A stretch of DNA of 16,054 nt from a candidate division WOR-3 bacterium (GCA_039801225.1 JBDRUH010000032.1:1-16054), one strand, 5' to 3'. Shown: positions 238 through 10,745, numbered from the stretch's first letter. Notes: a model not told the origin generated them from the sequence alone. Made by a program: numbers and translations.

Positions 238-1983
238 ATGAAGAAAAAAGGTCACCATTCTGTAGAGCACCAGGAGGAAAAATATCCCTTCAGAGTAAAA
301 TACGGTAGACGGCTTGCGGAAGAGTTCTGTGCCCTGTCGCGTCGGATTTTGCGTGCCGCAAATCAAGGTATGCCCAGAAGTGAATTTGCTCGTTTAGTTC
401 TTGAAGAGTTTATTAACTTCTCCGGTTGCGATTCGGCAGAAATTAGGGTAAATGAAGGAACTCGTTATTACCGAGGGGTCCTTACCCGGGAAAAAGGCAA
501 AAACTTTTCCTTTGAGATTGTGCCTAGAGCCGAATCCCAATCACCGGAAACGATGCCCGAAATAACCGAAGATACTCTTGGATTTAGGACGATATGCGAC
601 GCTCTCATTAGAGGCGATGTAAATTTTCAGCAAGGCTGTTTTGCCAGTAATGGTGGGTTCTGGAGTAACGACACCTCCCAACCGGTTGATGTTAAACCCA
701 ATCTTACCGTGAAAATTGGCGGCGCCTATTCTTCTATTGCCATTCTACCTTTTGTAGTAAGTGAAGATAGCCACGGCTTAATTATTTTAAAAAGCCTTAA
801 ACGGGGATATTTTAAAAAATATGAAATAGAATTTTATCAAGGTGTGGCACAGAGTCTGGGCGTGGCTATCGCCGACCGCCGGGCACAGGCGGCACTCCGG
901 GAACGGGTGAAGGAACTGGATTGCCTTTATTACATTGACAAAATTCTTGAGCAATCAAAATTGGAGTTAGCCGAAGCACTTCAAGCGGTGGTAGAAAAAC
1001 TCCCTGCCGCCTGGCTCTATCCCGAAATTGCCTCGGCACGAATAGTATTTGATGATAAACAATTTACCACAACGAATTACAAAGCAGGAGTTGCTTGTCA
1101 GAGAGCACCAATAGTTGTCCGAGGAAAGCATCGCGGGGTGATTGAGGTCGTTTACTTAGAAGGAAGACCTGAGTTAGATGAGGGTCCTTTTCTTAAGGAG
1201 GAACGTAATTTGATTAACGCCGTTGCCCGCGAAGTTGGACTTTTTATTGAAAGAAGGGAAATAGCCACCGAGCAAGCAAAACTTGAAACCCAGCTGCGCC
1301 ATGCCGACCGTTTGGCAACCATCGGACAACTTGCCGCGGGCGTCGCCCACGAATTAAATGAACCACTGAGTAACATCCTTGGTTTTGCCCAGTTGGCGCA
1401 AAAAGTGCCAAATATACCTCCCCAAGCAACCCAAGATATTGAAAGGATTGTCCAGGCGGTACTTCATGCCCGAGAAATAGTTAGTAAACTAATGACATTT
1501 GCCCGGCAGAAGCCTCCTTTGTTTACGGAAGTTAATCTCAACCAACTGATTAATGAAGGGCTCTATTTTCTTGCCTCCCGCTGTGCGAAAAGTGGGATTG
1601 AACTGATCCGGGATTTAACACCTGATTTACCGGAGATTATTGCTGACCCGGGTCAATTATACCAAGTCTTAGTCAACTTAGTGGTTAACGCTATCCAGGC
1701 AATGCCTAATGGCGGAAGATTAAGGGTCGCTACTATGGTTAGAGATGAAACGGTTTCATTAATCGTAGAAGACTCTGGTGTGGGGATGACAGAGAAAGAG
1801 AAAAGTCAGATATTTGTTCCCTTCTACACCACTAAACCCGAAGGTACCGGTCTGGGACTATCGGTGGTTTATGGTATAGTAACCGCCCATGGCGGTTCTA
1901 TAAAAGTAGAGAGTGAGCCGGGAAAAGGTAGCCGATTTGAAGTCCTATTACCCATAAAAGGAAACCCGATTGTAGAGAGTTGA
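238..1983 (+). CDS. Cytoplasmic sensor histidine kinase (GAF-like sensory regions + HisKA + HATPase), NtrB/AtoS-like
   Basis: 581-aa ORF with H-box LAAGVAHELNEPL, N-box QVLVNLVVNAIQAM, G1 DSGVGM, F-box IFVPFYTTK and G2 GTGLGLS. The N-terminal part has GAF-like segments (SIAILPFVVSEDSHGLIIL; APIVVRGKHRGVIEVVY) joined by a coiled coil ALRERVKELDCLY. No obvious transmembrane helix. Confidence 0.93.
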   Translation: MKKKGHHSVEHQEEKYPFRVKYGRRLAEEFCALSRRILRAANQGMPRSEFARLVLEEFINFSGCDSAEIRVNEGTRYYRGVLTREKGKNFSFEIVPRAESQSPETMPEITEDTLGFRTICDALIRGDVNFQQGCFASNGGFWSNDTSQPVDVKPNLTVKIGGAYSSIAILPFVVSEDSHGLIILKSLKRGYFKKYEIEFYQGVAQSLGVAIADRRAQAALRERVKELDCLYYIDKILEQSKLELAEALQAVVEKLPAAWLYPEIASARIVFDDKQFTTTNYKAGVACQRAPIVVRGKHRGVIEVVYLEGRPELDEGPFLKEERNLINAVAREVGLFIERREIATEQAKLETQLRHADRLATIGQLAAGVAHELNEPLSNILGFAQLAQKVPNIPPQATQDIERIVQAVLHAREIVSKLMTFARQKPPLFTEVNLNQLINEGLYFLASRCAKSGIELIRDLTPDLPEIIADPGQLYQVLVNLVVNAIQAMPNGGRLRVATMVRDETVSLIVEDSGVGMTEKEKSQIFVPFYTTKPEGTGLGLSVVYGIVTAHGGSIKVESEPGKGSRFEVLLPIKGNPIVES

Positions 1984-1988
1984 AAATT

Positions 1989-3335
1989 ATGAGTGAACAG
2001 ATAACAGCAACCATCCTTGTTGTTGATGACAACTTAGCCACCTTAGAGGTTCTTGAGCGTAATTTAACCGCAGCGGGTTACCAGGTTTATACTGTGCAAG
2101 ATGTCAACAATGCGGTAAAAGTTCTTAATGAGCAAGAAATTGACCTCGTAATAACCGACCTAAAAATGCCTGGTGAAAGTGGAATGGATTTGATTCGCTA
2201 TGTCCGTGAAAATCTCCATAATACTGAAGTAATGATGATTACCGGATATGCGACGATAGAAGGTGCCGTTCAAGCGGTGAAAGCCGGCGCTGAGGAGTAT
2301 TTAACCAAACCTTTTACTGATGAGGAGTTACTCGAGGCGGTAAAACGGGCACTGGAAAAACTTCATATTAGACGCACCGCTCAAGGTGCTGAAAAACCTC
2401 TAATTACATCGCCTTATGGTTTAATCGGGGAATCCGAGGCAATGAAAAAGGTATACGCCGCTATTGACCGCGCCGCCAAGGTCTCGGCAACGGTGTTGAT
2501 CACCGGCGAAAGCGGCACGGGTAAGGAGTTGGTCGCCCGGGCAATTCATTACTCCAGCCCGAGGGCTTCAGCACCATTTGTGCCGGTGAACTGCGGCGGT
2601 ATTCCTGAAGGGCTGTTAGAAAGTGAATTGTTCGGTTATGTCAAAGGTGCCTTCACCGGTGCCAATGAGACCCGAGCCGGTTTCTTCCAAACCGCAGAAG
2701 GAGGGTCAATTTTTCTTGACGAAATCAGTGAAACAAGTCTGGCAATGCAGGTGAAACTTTTGAGAGTTTTACAGGATAAAGAGGTGAGAATGGTTGGTGA
2801 CAGCCGACCCTATAAAGTTGATGTAAGAATAATGGCGGCGACTAATAAAGACCTTTTAACCCTGGTACAAAAAGGGTCTTTTCGCGAAGACCTGTTTTTC
2901 CGATTAAATGTCCTTACAATCCCTGTTCCACCTTTACGGGAAAGGGGCGACGACATTCTGTTGCTTACCCGGCACTTTATCCAGAAGTTCAGCCGGGAGA
3001 TGAACAGGGTGGCGCCCACTTTTACCGCCGAGGCTTTAGCGACTTTGAAACGCTACGAATGGCCGGGCAATGTCCGGGAACTGGAAAATCTAATTCAACG
3101 CCTTCTGGTAATGGTAGATTCGGAAACAATTGATATTCCTGACCTACCCCAACATATGCGTTTTTCTGTATTACACGGTGTCAGGTTAAACCGCACCCTC
3201 GCCGAAGTTGAACAGGAGTATATCAGTCAGGTAATTGCCAGCGTTAACGGTAATATTAGTAAGGCATCCAAGATTTTGGGAATAGACCGAAAAACATTGA
3301 GGAATAAGTTAAAACAGTCTCCCAAATCTCAATAA
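1989..3335 (+). CDS. Sigma-54-dependent response regulator (REC + AAA+ + Fis-type HTH), NtrC/AtoC family
   Basis: Receiver motifs LVVDD, ITDLKMP and TGYAT...KPF; Walker A GESGTGKE; ESELFG; intact GAFTGA (2646-2663); Walker B IFLDEI; FREDLFFRL; WPGNVREL; C-terminal GNISKASKILGIDRKTL HTH. ATG at 1989 preferred over TTG at 1980. Confidence 0.95.
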   Translation: MSEQITATILVVDDNLATLEVLERNLTAAGYQVYTVQDVNNAVKVLNEQEIDLVITDLKMPGESGMDLIRYVRENLHNTEVMMITGYATIEGAVQAVKAGAEEYLTKPFTDEELLEAVKRALEKLHIRRTAQGAEKPLITSPYGLIGESEAMKKVYAAIDRAAKVSATVLITGESGTGKELVARAIHYSSPRASAPFVPVNCGGIPEGLLESELFGYVKGAFTGANETRAGFFQTAEGGSIFLDEISETSLAMQVKLLRVLQDKEVRMVGDSRPYKVDVRIMAATNKDLLTLVQKGSFREDLFFRLNVLTIPVPPLRERGDDILLLTRHFIQKFSREMNRVAPTFTAEALATLKRYEWPGNVRELENLIQRLLVMVDSETIDIPDLPQHMRFSVLHGVRLNRTLAEVEQEYISQVIASVNGNISKASKILGIDRKTLRNKLKQSPKSQ

Positions 3336-3352
3336 AACATTAATTTTTAGAA

Positions 3353-3388
3353 TGGGGAAAATTATCCCCAGTGGTGCAATTTTCCCCA
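3353..3388. promoter_or_regulatory. Tandem putative upstream activator (enhancer) sites for the adjacent sigma-54 activator
   Basis: TGGGGA-AAATTA-TCCCCA (3353-3370) is a dyad. It is followed by TGGTGCAATTTTCCCCA (3372-3388); both share AATTxTCCCCA, 18 bp apart. They sit roughly 150-180 bp upstream of a -24/-12 motif. Confidence 0.6.
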
Positions 3389-3468
3389 AATAATCTTCGC
3401 CAAAACTTTTCTGATTGTTAGCGCTATCCCGATTTTCTTTTTTAACCACTCATAATTAAGTCTCACAT

Positions 3469-3481
3469 TATCTAATAGTTA
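3469..3481 (+). promoter_or_regulatory. IHF-like binding site
   Basis: TATCTAATAGTTA is one mismatch from WATCAANNNNTTR and lies in AT-rich DNA between the putative enhancer and the sigma-54 promoter. Confidence 0.35.
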
Positions 3482-3531
3482 TAATAATTCGTTTTAAATA
3501 TATCCGCTCTTTTCGGATATATGGCGTTTTG

Positions 3532-3547
3532 CGGAATGGTTTTTGCT
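3532..3547 (+). promoter_or_regulatory. Sigma-54 (-24/-12) promoter
   Basis: CGGAATGGTTTTTGCT has GG (3533-3534) and GC (3545-3546) exactly 10 nt apart, with TTGCT at -12, resembling TGGCACG-N4-TTGCW. It lies downstream of a GAFTGA-containing activator gene. Confidence 0.65.
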
Positions 3548-3637
3548 TAAATTATATTCGAGTAGGAGAAATAAATGGGGGTTAGATTATGGGTAATTTA
3601 GCAGATTAGTTAATTTAAATTAAACTGGAGGTGTAAA

Positions 3638-3994
3638 TTGTCGGTTACAAAGACGCAAAGAAAGGTGGCAGCAAAGAAACTGCCAGTAAAAAGAGAAAGA
3701 AAGCAGAAATTGGAGAGACCGCCACTCTCCGGATTGTGTAGCACCTGTAGCCATTCTCACGGATGTGGTTACAGATTAAGGCAGAGCCAGCCGGTTGTCT
3801 GGTGCGAGGAGTTTGAATCAACGAGTGTCCCATTTGTGGAAGAGACGCAATCGGGAATGGCGCAGGCACCTACCGTTGCCGAGATGCACGAGTGGGATAA
3901 ATATAAAGGATTGTGTGTCAACTGTGAGAACCGTGATAGTTGCCAAATTCGGAATAAGGAAATTGGTGTCTGGCACTGCGAAGAGTATCGCTAA
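3638..3994 (+). CDS. Small uncharacterised cysteine-rich protein with two internal GLCxxCx5C-x12-CEE[FY] repeats (putative metal/Fe-S binding)
   Basis: 118-aa ORF with TTG start and strong SD GGAGGT (3627-3632). Repeats are GLCSTCSHSHGCGYRLRQSQPVVWCEEF and GLCVNCENRDSCQIRNKEIGVWHCEEY. It abuts the gdh SD. Confidence 0.85.
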   Translation: MSVTKTQRKVAAKKLPVKRERKQKLERPPLSGLCSTCSHSHGCGYRLRQSQPVVWCEEFESTSVPFVEETQSGMAQAPTVAEMHEWDKYKGLCVNCENRDSCQIRNKEIGVWHCEEYR

Positions 3995-4005
3995 AGGAGA
4001 TGGCT

Positions 4006-5325
4006 ATGGCGATAACAAAAACAACGCCGATTAAGCGACGCTCACCGCGTCCCGAAATTTGCCCGCCGAAAAAGAGGAGTGTGTATCAGGATGTCATCTA
4101 CCAGTTCAACAAGGCAGCAGACATAATGAATCTTGACCCGGGTGTGCGTAAAATCCTTGCCACGACTATGAACGAGGTGATTGTCCATTTCCCAGTGAAA
4201 ATGGACGACGGACGAATAGAGGTATTTACCGGATATCGGGTTCAGCACAATAACGCCTTAGGTCCTTTTAAAGGCGGATTGCGGTTCCATCCTGCAGTTG
4301 ATATTGATGAAGTGCGAGCGCTGGCAACCTGGATGACCTGGAAGTCGGCTATCGCCAATATCCCTTTTGGTGGCGCAAAAGGTGGCATTCAGATTGACCC
4401 AACGCAGTATTCCTTCTCTGAGCTGGAACGAATAACCCGTCGTTTCACATTTGCCTTAGGTAATGTTATCGGTCCGGACTACGATATACCAGCGCCTGAT
4501 GTTAATACCAATCCCCAGATAATGGCTTGGATACTTGATACCTACCAGTCAATGGTTCCACCTCACGAAAGACAGCGGATGCTGGCGGTGGTTACCGGTA
4601 AACCGATTGAGTCTGGTGGCAGTCTGGGACGAGATAAAGCCACCGGGCAGGGGGTGGTTTTTCTGATCCGAGAATGGGCAAAAGAAAAGGGATTTGATTT
4701 GTCCAAGGCAACCTTCATTGTTCAGGGGTTTGGTAATGTCGGCTCTTGGGCGGCAAGGCTAATGAAACTTTTTGGTTCTCGACTCCTCGCCGTTGAGGAT
4801 GTTACCGGCGCAATTGCCAATCCGGAGGGAATTGACCCTGATGACCTCGCCCGGTATGTAAAAGAAAAAGGCGGCGTTAAAGGATATCCGAATGCAAAGC
4901 CGATTGGACACGACGAGTTTCTCTCCACACCAGCCGATATCTTTATTCCCGCTGCTCTGGAAAACCAGATTACCGCTGAAACCGCCTCTATGCTCAATGT
5001 TCGGCTTGTTGCGGAAGGTGCGAATGGACCTACCGACCCGGATGGCGATGCGATACTAACGAATAGGCGAATTGATGTTCTCCCGGATATCCTCTGTAAC
5101 TCCGGTGGAGTAATTGTTAGTTACTTTGAGTGGCTCCAGAACAAACGAAGCGAATTCTGGGACCTTCAGGAGGTAGACTGCAAACTCTACAAAAAAATGG
5201 TGGTGGCTTATCAAAGAGTGCGAGATACCGCACAGAAGTTCCAGGTAGACTGGCGCACCGCTGCCTATATTGTTGCCCTCGCCCGGTTAGAAAAGGTTTA
5301 TAAAGAGCGAGGTATATTCCCATAG
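4006..5325 (+). CDS. gdhA: Glutamate dehydrogenase (Glu/Leu/Phe/Val dehydrogenase family)
   Basis: Motifs GYRVQHNNALGPFKGGLRFHP, MTWK, PFGGAKGG, DIPAPDVNT, VVTGKP..GGSLGR..ATG, GFGNVG, IPAALE, EGANGP and PDILCNSGGVIVSYFEW. SD AAGGAG (3994-3999) favours ATG 4006 over ATG 4000. Confidence 0.95.
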   Translation: MAITKTTPIKRRSPRPEICPPKKRSVYQDVIYQFNKAADIMNLDPGVRKILATTMNEVIVHFPVKMDDGRIEVFTGYRVQHNNALGPFKGGLRFHPAVDIDEVRALATWMTWKSAIANIPFGGAKGGIQIDPTQYSFSELERITRRFTFALGNVIGPDYDIPAPDVNTNPQIMAWILDTYQSMVPPHERQRMLAVVTGKPIESGGSLGRDKATGQGVVFLIREWAKEKGFDLSKATFIVQGFGNVGSWAARLMKLFGSRLLAVEDVTGAIANPEGIDPDDLARYVKEKGGVKGYPNAKPIGHDEFLSTPADIFIPAALENQITAETASMLNVRLVAEGANGPTDPDGDAILTNRRIDVLPDILCNSGGVIVSYFEWLQNKRSEFWDLQEVDCKLYKKMVVAYQRVRDTAQKFQVDWRTAAYIVALARLEKVYKERGIFP

Positions 5326-5355: not shown

Positions 5356-5389
5356 GAGCGTCCGGGTACACCCCGGGCGCTCAGTTTTT
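5356..5389 (+). terminator. Rho-independent terminator after gdh
   Basis: GAGCGTCCGGG-TACAC-CCCGGGCGCTC forms an 11-bp stem with one G-U pair, followed by AGTTTTT. Confidence 0.8.
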
Positions 5390-6130: not shown

Positions 6131-6670
6131 ATGATTAATGCAAAAAAGCATCTCCAAACCACCTTGCTCGCAACGCTGGTGCTGGGTATGGTTTTTACCC
6201 TCACTCTCACCGGCTGTCCGAAAAAGTGCGTAAAACCGGTTAAGGAAGAGCCAATAATTGTGGAAGAGCCAACTGAAGAGGAAATAGGAGAAAGGATAGA
6301 AAAGGAAGAGGTCGCGCCGATAGCGGAACTGAATCTGCAAACAATTTACTTTGACTTTGACAAATCGGATATTCGTCCTGGTGATGCCGAGATTCTTACC
6401 TCTAATGCCCAAAAACTGAAAAAGGCGCTGGAAGGGAAGCGGCAAATAACAGTTACTATTGAAGGACATTGCTGTCCGATTGGCACCTCTGAATACAATA
6501 TGGCTCTGGGACAGCGACGGGCTGAGTCGGCTAAAGCATATCTGGTAAAGTTAGGGGTTAATGCCGGAATTCTCAATACCGTCAGTTACGGCGAGGAGAG
6601 ACCGGTAACAACCGACTCCCTTCAATACCATCTGAATCGGCGTTGCGAGTTTAAAGCGGTGACGAAATAA
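6131..6670 (+). CDS. pal: Peptidoglycan-associated lipoprotein (OmpA-like C-terminal domain)
   Basis: SD AAGGAGG; signal peptide with lipobox LTGC; LQTIYFDFDKSDIR, IEGHC, EYNMALGQRRA, VSYGEERP and NRR motifs; adjacent to cpoB/tolQR. Confidence 0.9.
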   Translation: MINAKKHLQTTLLATLVLGMVFTLTLTGCPKKCVKPVKEEPIIVEEPTEEEIGERIEKEEVAPIAELNLQTIYFDFDKSDIRPGDAEILTSNAQKLKKALEGKRQITVTIEGHCCPIGTSEYNMALGQRRAESAKAYLVKLGVNAGILNTVSYGEERPVTTDSLQYHLNRRCEFKAVTK

Positions 6671-6686
6671 CATTAAATCAGCGTGG

Positions 6687-7472
6687 ATGACAGCCAGTAG
6701 GTTTCAATCAAAAGCCGGGCGTCTTCTGGCAACAGGCTTTAGCCTGCTGGCTGTCATTTTTATTTCTTTTTCGGGAGTAATTGGCGGCGGGTGTGGCATT
6801 TATCGGGAGTATCTGCGGCGGGGCGAACTTTTGGACTCAATCTCAGTTCGGGTAAAACGACTGGAAAGGGAACAGAAAAATCAAAAGGAGTCTCTGGCAC
6901 AGTTGCGTGCCGAGTGTTTGACTTCTATAGAAAAGGTGGCGAACCGGATAGATGAGGTTGATGCCGAAGTGATTGATTTGGGTGAGCGGATAGATAAAAT
7001 TGGTCGTCGGGTGGGCGCCTGGCGCGGTGAGTTGAGTTCTGAACCTGCCGCACCACCCGAAACGGCAGTTTTTAAGCCCGATACCACCATCTCCGGAATT
7101 GATGCCGACCGCCTTTATAATACCGCCTACCTTGACTTCACCAAAGGAGATTATCAGGTTGCCATTACCGGTTTTCGCCGGTTTTTGAAACTTTTTCCCT
7201 CAAGCGAAATGGCTGATAATGCCCAGTACTGGATTGGCGAATGTTTTTATTCCTGCAATCAACTGGACAGCGCCGAAGTGGAGTTTAAAAAGGTGATAAG
7301 TTCCTATCCTGAGGGCAACAAAGTTCCCGATGCCATCTATAAACTCGGTCTAATATATCAGTTGCAAGGTAAAACAACCAGTGCCCGGCGTCAGTTTAAT
7401 GAGGTCATCAATAAGTATCCAAAAAGCCCTGCGGCGAAACTCGCTGAGGAGCGTTTGAAATCACAACCGTAG
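6687..7472 (+). CDS. cpoB: Tol-Pal system protein CpoB/YbgF (coiled coil + TPR)
   Basis: N-terminal hydrophobic segment ending GGGC (possible lipoprotein), then a coiled coil and TPRs LYNTAY...GDYQVAITGF, ADNAQYWIGECFY and NKVPDAIYKLG, ending YPKSPAAKLA. Directly downstream of pal. Confidence 0.88.
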   Translation: MTASRFQSKAGRLLATGFSLLAVIFISFSGVIGGGCGIYREYLRRGELLDSISVRVKRLEREQKNQKESLAQLRAECLTSIEKVANRIDEVDAEVIDLGERIDKIGRRVGAWRGELSSEPAAPPETAVFKPDTTISGIDADRLYNTAYLDFTKGDYQVAITGFRRFLKLFPSSEMADNAQYWIGECFYSCNQLDSAEVEFKKVISSYPEGNKVPDAIYKLGLIYQLQGKTTSARRQFNEVINKYPKSPAAKLAEERLKSQP

Positions 7473-7484
7473 TCTTTAAGTAAA

Positions 7485-8183
7485 ATGTCCCAACCTCAAG
7501 CCGGGTTTTTAACCCCATTTATCACCTCTGGTCCATTTGCATTAGGAATAATTATCCTCTTGTTTATAATGTCAGTGGTCAGCTGGGCGATATTCTTTTC
7601 CAAGAGCCGACAGTTTCGTCAGGCTACCCGGCAAACCCGACGGTTTTTAGAAGTTTTCCGAATCAGATATCGGTTTCAGGACTATCAGGAACTTACCCAC
7701 CTTTTTCCTGCCTCACCGCTAACAGCCCTTCTTATTGCTGCGGTGAAAGAATGGGATTCTCTCCAGAAAGAATGCGATAAAGAGACTTTAACCCAACTTG
7801 TCCCTAATATCACCGAGGCGATGGAAAGAGCCAGTTCCCGTGCGATTGAACGCCTGGAAAGTTCGCTATCTTTTCTGGCCATCACCACTATGGTGGCACC
7901 GTTCTTAGGACTTTTAGGCACCGTTCAGGGAGTTTTAAGAACCTTTCTTTCCCTTCGGGGCGCACAGTTACCAACATTACAACTGATTGCCCCAGGTATT
8001 TCCGATGCCTTAGTGACCACCGTAATGGGGCTTCTGGTGGCAATTCCAGCAGCACTTTTCTATAATTACTTTGTCGGCAGGGTGCATAACCTCCAGTCAG
8101 AAATGGAGCGGTTTATCTCAGAATTAACCGGCATATTCCGCCGCGAGGCGATAACTTCAGAGACGAGGAGTAGTATCCTTTAA
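7485..8183 (+). CDS. tolQ: TolQ/ExbB (MotA-family) proton channel protein
   Basis: Three TM segments; LFIMSVVSWAI, APFLGLLGTV and IAPGISDALVTTVMGLLVAIPA..FYN. Pal/CpoB context favours TolQ over ExbB. Confidence 0.85.
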   Translation: MSQPQAGFLTPFITSGPFALGIIILLFIMSVVSWAIFFSKSRQFRQATRQTRRFLEVFRIRYRFQDYQELTHLFPASPLTALLIAAVKEWDSLQKECDKETLTQLVPNITEAMERASSRAIERLESSLSFLAITTMVAPFLGLLGTVQGVLRTFLSLRGAQLPTLQLIAPGISDALVTTVMGLLVAIPAALFYNYFVGRVHNLQSEMERFISELTGIFRREAITSETRSSIL

Positions 8184-8596
8184 TGAATATGAAGCGAGAA
8201 AGAAGGCTTAAGTTTCTTGCCGAGATGAATATCACCTCTTTAGCCGATGTGAGTTTTACCTTGATGATAATCTTTTTAATTGCTGGTGTTTCTACCGCTT
8301 TGAGCCGGCAGCAAGGGATTGATTTAGACCTGCCACGAACCAGCCGTCCAGAGCCCCAGACTCGTCCTGGTCTGGTAATTGCAATTAAGTCCGATGGGCA
8401 GATTTTCATTGGCACGAAAGCGGTATCAAAGGAGGGTTTTCCCCAGGCATTGGCGAGCGTTCTCGCCCGGGGTGAGTATGAGCAAGTTTATCTTCAGGCC
8501 GACCGGCGGGTTGATTATGGAACGATAATTGAAATCCTGGGCATAATCCGCGAGCAGGGAATTTCCAGTATCGGTCTGACCGCCCTGCCAAAGTGA
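8183..8596 (+). CDS. tolR: TolR/ExbD biopolymer transport protein
   Basis: AEMNITSLADVSFTLMIIFLI TM with the conserved Asp, IDLDLP, and VYLQADRRVDYG..I..LG. Start overlaps the tolQ stop (TAATG). Confidence 0.85.
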   Translation: MNMKRERRLKFLAEMNITSLADVSFTLMIIFLIAGVSTALSRQQGIDLDLPRTSRPEPQTRPGLVIAIKSDGQIFIGTKAVSKEGFPQALASVLARGEYEQVYLQADRRVDYGTIIEILGIIREQGISSIGLTALPK

Positions 8597-8635
8597 AGAA
8601 CCGATGACTGAGGAGAAAAGAAGAAAACCCGAAAA

Positions 8636-9217
8636 GTGAAAAGAGAGCTTTTTATCTCTTTTACCGGTCATCTGGTTGTTTTTCTAACGGTTGGTTTTTT
8701 TACCGTCAAGCAGAAATCAAATCAAATCACCCGACCAGCGGTCATCACCGTCCAGATTTTAAAAGGCGGCGCTCAGGAGTCAGAAACACCCAAACCTACA
8801 CCCCGTTTGATTGAACCGGCGCCTAAACCGACGCCAAGTAAAAAGGATGCGGAAAAACCGAAACCGAAAGCCTCCAAGAAAGGAGATGATGGAATTGTCC
8901 GTCACCAGGGTTTAGGAGCAAAAATTGAGGGGATACAGGCATTGGGATATAATTATTATCTTCAAGAGATGCTGGAGCGTATTGGCGAAAACTGGGAAAA
9001 CCTCTATCACATTGGTAGTCAACAACTTAAGGCGACGGTGGTTTTTGTAATTGAGCGGGATGGTAGACTTGTTGAGATAAAATTGGAAAAGGGGTCGGGT
9101 AACGAGATGTTTGATGAGTCCTGCGTGCGGGCGGTTGCCGTTACAAAAAAACTGCCACCTTTGCCCAATGAGTTTACCGCGCCCCGAATTAAGATTCATC
9201 TTGAGTTTGAGCGGTGA
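8636..9217 (+). CDS. Short TolA/TonB-family energy transducer
   Basis: N-terminal TM with S-x3-H (ISFTGHL), Pro/Lys-rich linker (PKPTP...PAPKPTP...KPKPK), and C-terminal domain YL..M..RI..NW...VVFVIERDG...SG...FDESCVRAV....LPPLP. GTG start. Confidence 0.8.
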   Translation: MKRELFISFTGHLVVFLTVGFFTVKQKSNQITRPAVITVQILKGGAQESETPKPTPRLIEPAPKPTPSKKDAEKPKPKASKKGDDGIVRHQGLGAKIEGIQALGYNYYLQEMLERIGENWENLYHIGSQQLKATVVFVIERDGRLVEIKLEKGSGNEMFDESCVRAVAVTKKLPPLPNEFTAPRIKIHLEFER

Positions 9218-9265: not shown

Positions 9266-9814
9266 ATGGTAGTAATTATTATTGCGGTTGTCGTCGGGTT
9301 GGTGCTTATTTTTATTGTCGGCACCTACAACCTGTTAGTCAGAAGCCGTAACCGGGTTCAGAATGGCTGGCATCAGATCGATGTCCAACTGAAGCGTCGG
9401 ATTGACCTTATCCCCAACTTAATAGAAACGGTCAAAGGATATGCCGCCCACGAAAAGGCAATATTTGAAAAGATTGCTGAGGCTCGGGCAATGGCGATGG
9501 GTGCTAAGGGACCGATGGAAGCGGCAAAGGCAAACAGTCAATTAACCGAAACATTAAAAACCCTTTTTGCGGTGGCGGAAAACTACCCGGACCTAAAGGC
9601 GAATCAGAATTTTCTGAAATTGCAGGAGGAACTGGCTCATACCGAAAACAATATCGCCTTTTCCCGGCAGTTTTACAATGATGTGGTGATGGATTACAAT
9701 AACCGGGTCCAGATGTTTCCTTCCAATATTATCGCCGGTATCTTCAATTTCAAACCGGCGGAGTTTTACCGCGTGCCCGAGGCAGAACGAGAGGTGCCTA
9801 AAGTAAAGTTTTAA
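9266..9814 (+). CDS. lemA: LemA family protein
   Basis: N-terminal [65 protein letters not shown] and FPSNIIA. Confidence 0.95.
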
Positions 9815-9818
9815 AAAC

Positions 9819-10745
9819 TTGGTGAAGGAAAGGCAAAACCTATATCAGTTAATAGCCCGGAATCGGTGGGCGACAATCTTATTTATTACCATTTTTACCC
9901 TCCTACTGGCGACTGTCGGTTATGCATTGGGTTATTTCTTCCGCTGGGGTATAGAAATGTATCTATTCTGGGCTTTGTTCATCATTTTCTATAATATAAT
10001 TCTTTATTACAACTCGGATAAATTGGCACTGGCGATAAACCGGGCACAGCCCGCGCCGGTAGAAGAGTTCTATCAGTTGCACAACATCGTAGAAGAGGTA
10101 GCTCTAGCGGCCGGAATTCCTAAACCCAAGGTTTACATTATTGATGACGATGCACCGAATGCCTTTGCCACGGGCAGGAATCCCAACAACGCTGCGGTGG
10201 CGGTTACCCGGGGGCTGCTTGAAATGATGAATCGGGAAGAACTGCAAGGGGTCATCGCCCACGAGGTTGCCCATATCAGAAACTATGATATCCTGTTGAT
10301 GACGGTGGTGGCAATTTTGGGTGGACTTCTGATTCTCTTCCGTGATATCTTTCTCCGCTGGGGATTTTTTATGGGTGGCGGACGCCGACGCGACTCCCGT
10401 TCCCGCGGCGGTGGGCAATTGGGCTTGATATTGTTCCTTGTCGGAATAGTCTTGGCAATTTTAGCACCTTTATTAGTGGCTTTGATCCGTGCCGCAATAT
10501 CAAGGGAGCGGGAGTATCTGGCCGATGCTTCTGGTGCCTATATTGTGCGTAATCCTATCGGGCTGGCAAAAGCCCTGCGCAAAATCGGCAGTTACACCAA
10601 GAAGCTCCAGACCGCCTCGGACGCTACCGCCCATATGTGGACCGCCAACCCATTTGGCAGAGATAGAAAAAATGTTGCCAGCCTTTTTGCCTCACACCCA
10701 CCATTAATTGAGCGAATAAGACGCCTGGAGCAGCTGACCATTTAA
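9819..10745 (+). CDS. htpX: HtpX-like membrane zinc metalloprotease (M48)
   Basis: [23 protein letters not shown] zinc motif, [19 protein letters not shown] and LFASHPP..ERI.RL. The lemA-htpX pairing is common. Start is TTG 9819 or GTG 9822. Confidence 0.92.

Follow-up and report, generated by a model that had tools for sequence, protein, structure and literature searches.

We describe an uncharacterised protein of 118 amino acids, built of two four-cysteine modules, whose gene occupies positions 3638-3994 on the plus strand of the window (the whole stretch of 16,054 nucleotides of DNA from a candidate division WOR-3 bacterium that was analysed). The protein belongs to a family that is real, conserved across phyla and present in no domain library. 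Judging from gene neighbourhoods, the tightest link of the module gene is to a two-component system and not to gdh, the gene of the glutamate dehydrogenase (GDH) that follows it. Our tentative proposal is that the module protein serves as an adaptor or co-sensor, of the Fe-S type or, less likely, of a Zn type, that would link enzymes to the kinase of this two-component system. No description of the regulon or of the motif combination was found in the literature searched, which was open-access full text.

The module gene and its protein

A sequence-only reading of this DNA had pointed to a strong Shine-Dalgarno (SD) sequence with a TTG start, to a stop codon overlapping the SD of gdh and to a Lys/Arg-rich N-terminal tail, and all of these are borne out. 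GGAGG is located at 3627-3631, with the TTG codon (3638) six bases further on, and this start is favoured because the closest relatives share the same MSV... N-terminus with the window protein. The TAA codon (3992-3994) runs into AGGAG, and the ATG codons available to gdh are at 4000 and 4006, i.e., gdh begins 5-11 nt past the stop of the module gene. The tail (residues 1-30, 3638-3727) contains 11 Lys and Arg residues and has a pI of 11.6.

The repeats had been described as identically spaced, with eight Cys residues in all. The eight Cys (34, 37, 43, 56 and 93, 96, 102, 114 in the translated protein), the GLC starts and the CEEF and CEEY ends stand, but the last spacing differs between the repeats, x12 versus x11. 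Module 1 (residues 32-59, 3731-3814) has the pattern GLC-x2-C-x5-C-x12-CEEF and reads GLCSTCSHSHGC-x12-CEEF; module 2 (residues 91-117, 3908-3988) has the pattern GLC-x2-C-x5-C-x11-CEEY, reads GLCVNCENRDSC-x11-CEEY and stops one residue short of the C-terminus. The linker that joins the modules is acidic and ends with EWDKYK just ahead of module 2. The protein core is acidic as well, with a pI of 5.25 in the window protein and a median pI of 5.3 in the family, and no hydrophobic segment was seen when the 118-residue sequence was read by eye.

Two other interpretations of this stretch were discarded. A minus-strand ORF (3645-3869) overlaps the module gene and was dismissed, since only the plus frame shows conservation. 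A RiPP precursor was rejected on two grounds: there is no conserved maturase nearby, a radical SAM gene being found in one locus only (L016), and the protein is conserved over its full length across phyla.

A conserved family that is in no domain library

In the word-indexed search, 81 clusters came up; none of them has a Pfam domain, and all are named 'hypothetical protein'. An exhaustive profile search of 1.84 billion representatives, which stand for clusters at 50% identity and number about 2000 for the module family, returned 1999 relatives at E≤1e-3 and 1376 at E≤1e-10; the best 150 relatives of this search are 89-224 amino acids long. Among the 185,579 species genomes scanned, 395 stretches encode a relative. 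The hosts are metagenome-assembled genomes (MAGs) labelled Planctomycetota, Zixibacteria, Ignavibacteria, Desulfobacterota, Spirochaetota, Omnitrophota, TA06, Coatesbacteria and others, and the related loci all come from MAGs or metagenomes. Three metagenome loci (L122, L130, L139) carry a tandem pair of module genes on one strand.

The sequence-only reading had tied its proposal to conserved Cys residues and a non-random gene neighbourhood. The first is found in an alignment of 150 relatives, in which all eight Cys as well as G91 and W112 are invariant and conservation reaches 90% or more at L92, G110, H113, E115, E116 and Y117; C43 is replaced by His in two homologues, and a few homologues contain three modules. 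Among the 199 two-repeat proteins, the last spacing is x12 in repeat 1 of 193 and x11 in repeat 2 of 198, and 197 end two residues past CEE. Comparison of the two repeat profiles with hhalign (probability 98.7%, E 1.9e-16) shows them to be homologous, which means that the two modules are a true duplication. Since all four Cys are kept in single-module proteins and in fusions, each module is taken to be an autonomous four-ligand site, putatively for a metal. The N-terminal tail, on the other hand, is variable and is missing from most members. The median number of Lys and Arg in it is 8 in the 19 loci where gdh comes first downstream versus 4 in the 53 loci where a NuoE-like gene does, a rough comparison as N-termini were set at the first possible start codon.

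That the protein is uncharacterised, as had been claimed, agrees with the searches of Pfam, NCBIfam, PDB and ESM Atlas and with the fold searches, none of which matched it to a known family. It has no Pfam or NCBIfam match and matches no Fer4 family at E≤10; its sole Pfam alignment, with RseC_MucC (residues 33-46, 8.5 bits, E 2.4), is non-significant. Among the sequences of PDB structures there is only a chance match to transferrin (E 0.24), and the ESM Atlas search returned unnamed clusters only. AlphaFold2 (AF2) models had a pLDDT of 71 and a pTM of 0.29 with 45 sequences, and a pLDDT of 81 and a pTM of 0.37 with 150 sequences. They contain hardly any regular secondary structure, with short knuckle-like turns in the better model, for which nothing was found at Z≥2 among 48,161 chains and Foldseek returned no match. 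The Cys pattern had also been held to be neither that of ferredoxins nor that of rubredoxins, which is upheld: it is Cx2Cx5Cx11-12C, with one CxxC per module and no Fer4 match. The word 'novel' is justified for this pattern insofar as no family matches it, but its Cx2Cx5C core is already known to ligate [4Fe-4S] clusters in Wbl, RseC/RnfF and SPASM-type proteins.

The two-component system and the operon

The kinase gene (238-1983, plus strand) encodes a cytoplasmic histidine kinase with a GAF-type sensor region, HisKA and HATPase_c (Pfam). Its stop is overlapped by the start of the regulator gene (1980-3335, plus strand), the product of which is an NtrC-type sigma-54-dependent response regulator with a receiver, an AAA+ sigma-54 interaction domain and a Fis-type HTH (Pfam); neither protein reached an NCBIfam equivalog cut-off. 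An alignment of 62 orthologous kinases shows that the sensor domain beside the kinase core (residues ~214-345, motif ..RVKELxCLY..) is conserved in all of them. For this GAF-like domain (window 877-1272, residues 214-345, motif E-L-x-C-L-Y) no Pfam model scored above threshold.

From the layout of the sequence, the module gene is the first gene behind a candidate sigma-54 promoter, just 3' of the genes of the kinase and regulator. The candidate promoter, cGGAATGGTTTTTGCtt (3532-3548, plus strand), keeps the GG-N10-GC spacing and has a canonical -12 TTGC and a degenerate -24 element; it is positionally homologous to TGGCACAATAATTGCT of locus L005, which is a canonical TGGCAC-N5-TTGC. Of 77 loci, 47 carry the pattern TGG[CT]A-N7-TGC in the upstream region on the coding strand and 3 carry it on the reverse complement; it is absent from the downstream controls (0). 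Further upstream, 19 nt past the regulator stop, lies a candidate activator binding site (3354-3387), a tandem palindrome whose first copy is GGGGA-N6-TCCCC (3354-3369) and whose imperfect second copy (3373-3387) ends in TTTTCCCC. Both copies align in the four closest loci, and 13 of 79 upstream regions, that of the window among them, contain GGG[GA]A-N3-7-T[CT]CCC. Rfam gave no match at E≤1 on 3300-4050.

A scan of the window genome for GGGGA-N4-7-TCCCC returned eight sites, the window's own included. The window site has N6; the only site elsewhere with the N5 spacing of most relatives, at about 28852 of contig C11, lies where two plus-strand ORFs (28237-28836 and 28817-29548) meet and, by its sequence, may be a further activator target. 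The 15 sigma-54-like sites of the window genome revealed no obvious further target.

The gene following the module gene encodes an ELFV-family GDH (Pfam; 4000-5325, plus strand, with ATG 4006 as the likelier start). Its best NCBIfam match is GdhA_Arch, whose 483 bits are under the cut-off of 750, and GDH orthologues encoded beside the module gene are 70-88% identical. A terminator-like hairpin (5356-5382, plus strand) of 11 pairs, 9 of them GC, followed by a T run closes the two-gene operon. Elsewhere in the window, a Tol-Pal-like cluster (6131-9217) has an unusual order, namely OmpA/Pal-like, TPR YbgF-like, TolQ (MotA_ExbB), TolR (ExbD) and a TonB/TolA-like C-terminal domain, and at 9266-10745 a LemA-family gene is followed, after a gap of 4 nt, by an M48 peptidase gene. 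LemA and M48 peptidase form a recurrent, poorly understood membrane pair.

Genomic context in related loci

We compared 80 related loci by tblastn with the window proteins, all counts referring to one reference set. The regulator is present in 65 of them (about 56-77% identity to the window protein) and the kinase in 63 (37-65%), and in 60 loci the regulator is encoded on the same strand at most 2.6 kb upstream of the module gene. The neighbourhood is thus strongly non-random, as the sequence-only reading had anticipated, both in the 80 loci and in the genomes of the window's phylum, where the module accompanies the regulator in 53 of 53. The coupling to GDH that it had also put forward is found in the window and in 19 of the 80 loci, but in 53 of the 80 the next gene is NuoE-like; the remaining eight have other genes, which include large NAD-GDHs (L037, L060), divergent ELFV-like proteins (L053, L073) and a Pyr_redox_2 protein (L055). 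In 56 of 77 loci, no more than 100 nt separate the module gene from the enzyme gene after it.

In the 53 loci of the NuoE type, a gene of a NuoE-like [2Fe-2S] protein is followed by that of a NuoF-GltD fusion of ~1065 amino acids, or alternatively of a 616-residue NuoF with two Fer4 motifs, and then by that of a 225-residue Fe-S protein similar to the N-terminus of NuoG. This set resembles the Bfu/Stn/NfnABC bifurcating enzymes as these are presented in the cited passages of PMC10482914 and PMC11829005. According to the same passages, GltD (Fer4_20 and Pyr_redox_2) is carried by the NuoG-like subunit in characterised Stn/NfnABC, whereas it is on the NuoF-like subunit in L017 (7180-10377) and its relatives. 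Both enzymes may share one locus, in the order activator-GDH-module-NuoE (L031, L042) or module-GDH-NuoE (L030), and in L087 one module gene is ahead of gdh and a second is ahead of the NuoE-like gene. Six loci with 5.4-6 kb of upstream sequence have no two-component system nearby; a NuoE-like gene is downstream of the module gene in five of them, the exception being L074. In L026, which is one of these loci, the module gene and NuoE-like operon are preceded by a divergent gene of an Rrf2-family (Fe-S type) regulator (4865-5266, minus strand).

Presence and loss across genomes

A module match was obtained in 64 of 272 genomes of the window's phylum and in 44 of its 181 high-quality genomes. 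An activator orthologue (E≤1e-150) is present in 53 of the 272, and all 53 are among the 64 that bear the module, though such co-occurrence counts overstate the support because kin are not independent.

In the window's family, 23 of 44 genomes have the module. In 13 of these 23, the window's genome (88.8% complete) included, PF01257, the NuoE-like domain, is absent throughout; eight of the 13 have a completeness of 95% or more, and all 13 keep the module protein at 49-67% identity to that of the window. In the window's clade, the module protein is therefore independent of the Bfu-type enzyme, and the idea that it is an obligate Bfu subunit was discarded for this clade.

The GDH orthologue is present in 22 of the 23 module-bearing genomes of the family, the exception being G221 (74% complete); the two genes are adjacent wherever they share a contig, which they do not in G220. 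Three genomes (G206, G210 and G217) have the GDH orthologue and no module. Of these, G206 and G210 (98% and 97% complete) are of the same genus as the module-bearing G207, and the 4.3 kb upstream of their gdh, which encodes a GDH orthologue of 84% identity, contain neither kinase, activator nor module. What is left of module 2 in G206 is a relic of 18 codons from its end, which lies behind stop codons directly upstream of the intact gdh (L170, 4250-4306). By comparison of these sequences, the module was lost in G206 and G210 together with the two-component system, which may have been a single deletion of neighbouring genes in one genus. As the GDH orthologue is intact in all three genomes, the module is not needed for a stable GDH.

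Fusions of the module to enzymes and to a sensor domain

In three genomes of the window's phylum (L082-L084), a GDH that is orthologous to the window GDH (72-75% identity) bears at its N-terminus an in-frame fusion made up of a K/R tail, an EWKLLY motif and a single module, with the same kinase and activator upstream. The region search found four module-GDH fusion clusters, one with 70 members, and typing by profile identified a module-2-type copy in seven of seven GDH fusions. A 102-residue single-module protein is encoded between the activator and gdh genes in L089. The window GDH has an N-terminal extension (4000-4100) that is K/R/P-rich and places ~25 residues ahead of the usual family start; the linker behind the module in the GDH fusions is the same kind of K/R/P-rich segment, and this resemblance suggests that the fusions arose by loss of a stop codon.

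Fusions to a NuoE-like subunit are found at either end. PF01257 is present in 14 of the 23 longer relatives, and three more such fusions come from loci L076, L085 and L086. Typing of these 17 by profile gave eight with both modules at the N-terminus, five with a single N-terminal module of type 1 (five of the five single N-terminal fusions) and four with a C-terminal module of type 2.

Eight clusters of proteins of ~266 amino acids combine an N-terminal sensor domain with both modules. Over 120 residues, this domain shares 34% identity (E 2e-21) with residues 218-337 of the window kinase, i.e., with the GAF-like domain beside the kinase core, which is the conserved part of every orthologous kinase. 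The one sensor-domain fusion recovered with its context (L090) is encoded directly after NuoG-like and Glu_synthase-domain genes; a Glu_synthase-domain gene is also present in L008. The GAF-like domain heads other proteins as well, among them PPDK_N proteins of ~790-1970 amino acids (five of five scanned), a HisKA_2 kinase and a GGDEF-HD protein (L091-L169), and is thus a general sensor module. Because of this promiscuity, the sensor-domain fusion is no proof of contact with the kinase of the window. It may be that the GAF-like domain senses one common ligand across the regulon.

Possible function of the module protein

We favour, tentatively, the connector and co-sensor reading because it covers the coupling to the two-component system, the first position in the operon, the fusions to two unrelated enzymes and the sensor-domain fusion. 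The module protein would be a small cytoplasmic metalloprotein with two autonomous four-Cys modules, each of which would most probably hold one [4Fe-4S]-type cluster or, alternatively, a structural Zn. The kinase and NtrC-type regulator would turn on the sigma-54 promoter, so that the module protein and GDH are made together. The module protein would then dock on the co-expressed enzyme: in the window this would be GDH, and in most relatives it would be a Bfu-type NAD(P)H/ferredoxin oxidoreductase, by way of its NuoE-like subunit. Module 2 would pair with GDH and module 1 with the NuoE-like N-terminus. The protein would also dock on the GAF-like sensor domain beside the kinase core, and feedback on transcription would come from the amount of enzyme, or from the clusters through their redox or oxygen state. 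The kind of metal, the physical contacts, the direction of feedback and the sensed signal are what we infer from the comparisons above. By analogy, the modules somewhat more probably hold Fe-S than Zn, since there are Fe-S precedents for Cx2Cx5C...C in Wbl, RseC/RnfF and AhbD, and zinc ribbons and rubredoxins use paired CxxC. The earlier menu of roles, which listed sensor, electron carrier, GDH regulator and feedback partner of the kinase, brackets what the fusions to GDH and to the sensor domain point to.

Several points speak against a connector. Its co-occurrence with the two-component system may reflect only the position of the first gene in a regulated operon; GDH has, to our knowledge, no redox cofactor able to talk to an Fe-S cluster; and the six loci mentioned above have no two-component system nearby in spite of 5.4-6 kb of upstream sequence. 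Prediction of a complex of kinase residues 214-581, the regulator and residues 28-118 of the module protein gave a score of 0.00, which counts neither for nor against the connector. It is also conceivable, if on the unlikely side, that the module is a portable [4Fe-4S] 'reporter tag' that, free or fused to GDH or a NuoE-like protein, is read directly by the GAF-like domain of the kinase. If this were true, metabolic enzymes or their redox state would be connected to a sigma-54 two-component system by an undescribed route, which would operate in hundreds of anaerobic species of many phyla.

The rival that survives best, which we consider somewhat unlikely, is that the protein is an accessory subunit only: a metal domain with a regulatory or docking role in GDH and in the NuoE-like subunit, such as a redox- or oxygen-sensitive switch or a tether, that has no signalling contact with the kinase and shares no more than co-regulation with the two-component system. 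It would agree with the seven GDH fusions and the 17 fusions at either end of the NuoE-like subunit, with a module gene immediately upstream of the enzyme gene (gap of at most 100 nt in 56 of 77 loci), with L087, where each enzyme has a module gene of its own before it, and with the sorting of module types by partner, module 2 on GDH and module 1 on the NuoE-like N-terminus (5/5 single fusions). However, the GDH orthologue is intact in G206, G210 and G217, which lack the module, and both the fusion to a kinase-type sensor domain and the 53/53 co-occurrence with the regulator would be left unexplained.

A new two-cluster ferredoxin, a low-potential carrier for the Bfu-type NuoE/NuoF-GltD/NuoG-like enzyme that was retained beside gdh where this enzyme was lost, appears quite improbable. 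Such a carrier would account for eight Cys in two 3+1 sets and a small acidic core (median pI 5.3), for a gene with which, in 53 of 80 loci, an operon of Fe-S flavoenzymes begins and for the fusions to the NuoE-like subunit. The characterised Stn/NfnABC relatives use ferredoxin according to the cited passages of PMC10482914 and PMC11829005, and the Cx2Cx5C...C order is that of a known auxiliary [4Fe-4S] site in the cited part of PMC10452713. On the other side, the 13 of 23 module-bearing family genomes that lack a NuoE-like gene keep the protein at 49-67% identity, it is difficult to see why a plain electron carrier should be fused to GDH or a small-molecule sensor domain, and no likeness to any ferredoxin in sequence or fold was found in the searches. 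The ferredoxin reading fits the Bfu-linked majority, not the window's clade.

A zinc-stabilised protein that binds nucleic acids or regulates translation by means of the basic tail is very improbable, for although the tail is K/R-rich (pI 11.6), the AF2 model predicts short knuckle-like turns and the gene is tightly coupled in translation to gdh, the tail is missing from most family members, the conserved core is acidic, each module has a single CxxC versus the paired knuckles of zinc ribbons, and the fusion partners are enzymes and a sensor domain, with no nucleic-acid machinery among them.

The family marks a conserved, unstudied regulon of anaerobes in which GDH and a Bfu-type NAD(P)H/ferredoxin module come together with a dedicated sigma-54 two-component system. 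Should the protein be an Fe-S-binding connector, it would offer a concrete, testable mechanism by which uncultured fermenters tune amino-acid oxidation and redox balance, and the catalogue would gain a new small Fe-S domain. Even on a minimal reading, the module deserves a domain family of its own and is a useful genomic marker of the regulon.

Comparison with known systems

The clostridial 2x[4Fe-4S] ferredoxins, which are redox partners of the Bfu/Stn/NfnABC enzymes and whose motif is Cx2Cx2Cx3CP, present twice, are likewise small and acidic with eight Cys in duplicated 3+1 sets and, like the module protein, are encoded with ferredoxin-dependent flavoenzymes. The module protein differs from them in its Cx2Cx5C...C order, its linker of 30-40 residues and its persistence where there is no partner enzyme; with a Cx2Cx5Cx11-12C motif and with no Fer4 or fold match, it was not assigned to these ferredoxins. 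Zinc ribbons and rubredoxins have two paired CxxC knuckles per metal site, and the module protein was not placed among them either, as each module has a single CxxC and isolated third and fourth Cys.

The auxiliary site of AhbD, CX2CX5CX20-38C, ligates a [4Fe-4S] cluster, according to the cited passage of PMC10452713. SPASM/twitch domains share with the module protein the order of ligands, three close Cys and then a fourth downstream, but they are parts of large radical SAM enzymes, and in the module protein the fourth Cys is closer (11-12 residues). The SPASM/twitch pattern Cx2Cx5Cx3C, which belongs to the C-terminal extension of a radical SAM enzyme, does not describe the module protein, which has no x3C, no radical SAM domain and no Pfam match.

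Wbl proteins are described in the cited passages of PMC7363131 as soluble regulators of 80-140 amino acids in which four Cys, including Cx2Cx5C, hold a [4Fe-4S] cluster and which act by protein-protein contact; their pattern is C-xn-C-x2-C-x5-C followed by G[V/I]WGG, and they are given there as restricted to actinomycetes. The module protein is also small and soluble with Cx2Cx5C, and the G-V-W turn before the last Cys of module 2 superficially recalls G[V/I]WGG. The order of Cys is reversed, however, being C-xn-Cx2Cx5C in Wbl versus Cx2Cx5C-x11/12-C in the module protein, and Wbl proteins have one site rather than two, a sigma-factor partner, hosts of another phylum and a Pfam family, to which the module protein has no match. 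The order of Cys, the Pfam result and the non-actinomycete hosts (Planctomycetota, Zixibacteria, Ignavibacteria, Desulfobacterota and others) place the module protein outside Wbl.

In RseC/RnfF, an N-terminal Cx2Cx5C forms an oxygen-sensitive Fe-S cluster, and the protein is associated with a redox complex of the Rnf type and, in one organism, with transcription of the operon of this complex, as stated in the cited passages of PMC11729352. RseC, a membrane protein, has a single motif followed by two transmembrane helices, whereas the module protein is soluble with two complete four-Cys modules, and its alignment with RseC_MucC (PF04246) covers 14 residues with 8.5 bits versus a cut-off of 24.4 (E 2.4), which puts it outside that family.

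Two-component and sigma-54 systems have small feedback proteins, namely FixT on FixL, ZraP on ZraS and PspA on PspF. These have no sequence relationship with the module protein, and we know of none that is fused to the enzymes of its regulon, as the module is. Like the module protein, for which the feedback would be a proposal, FixT, ZraP and PspA are products of the regulated operon, and they act back on their own kinase or activator; FixT reportedly needs a four-Cys Fe-S site.
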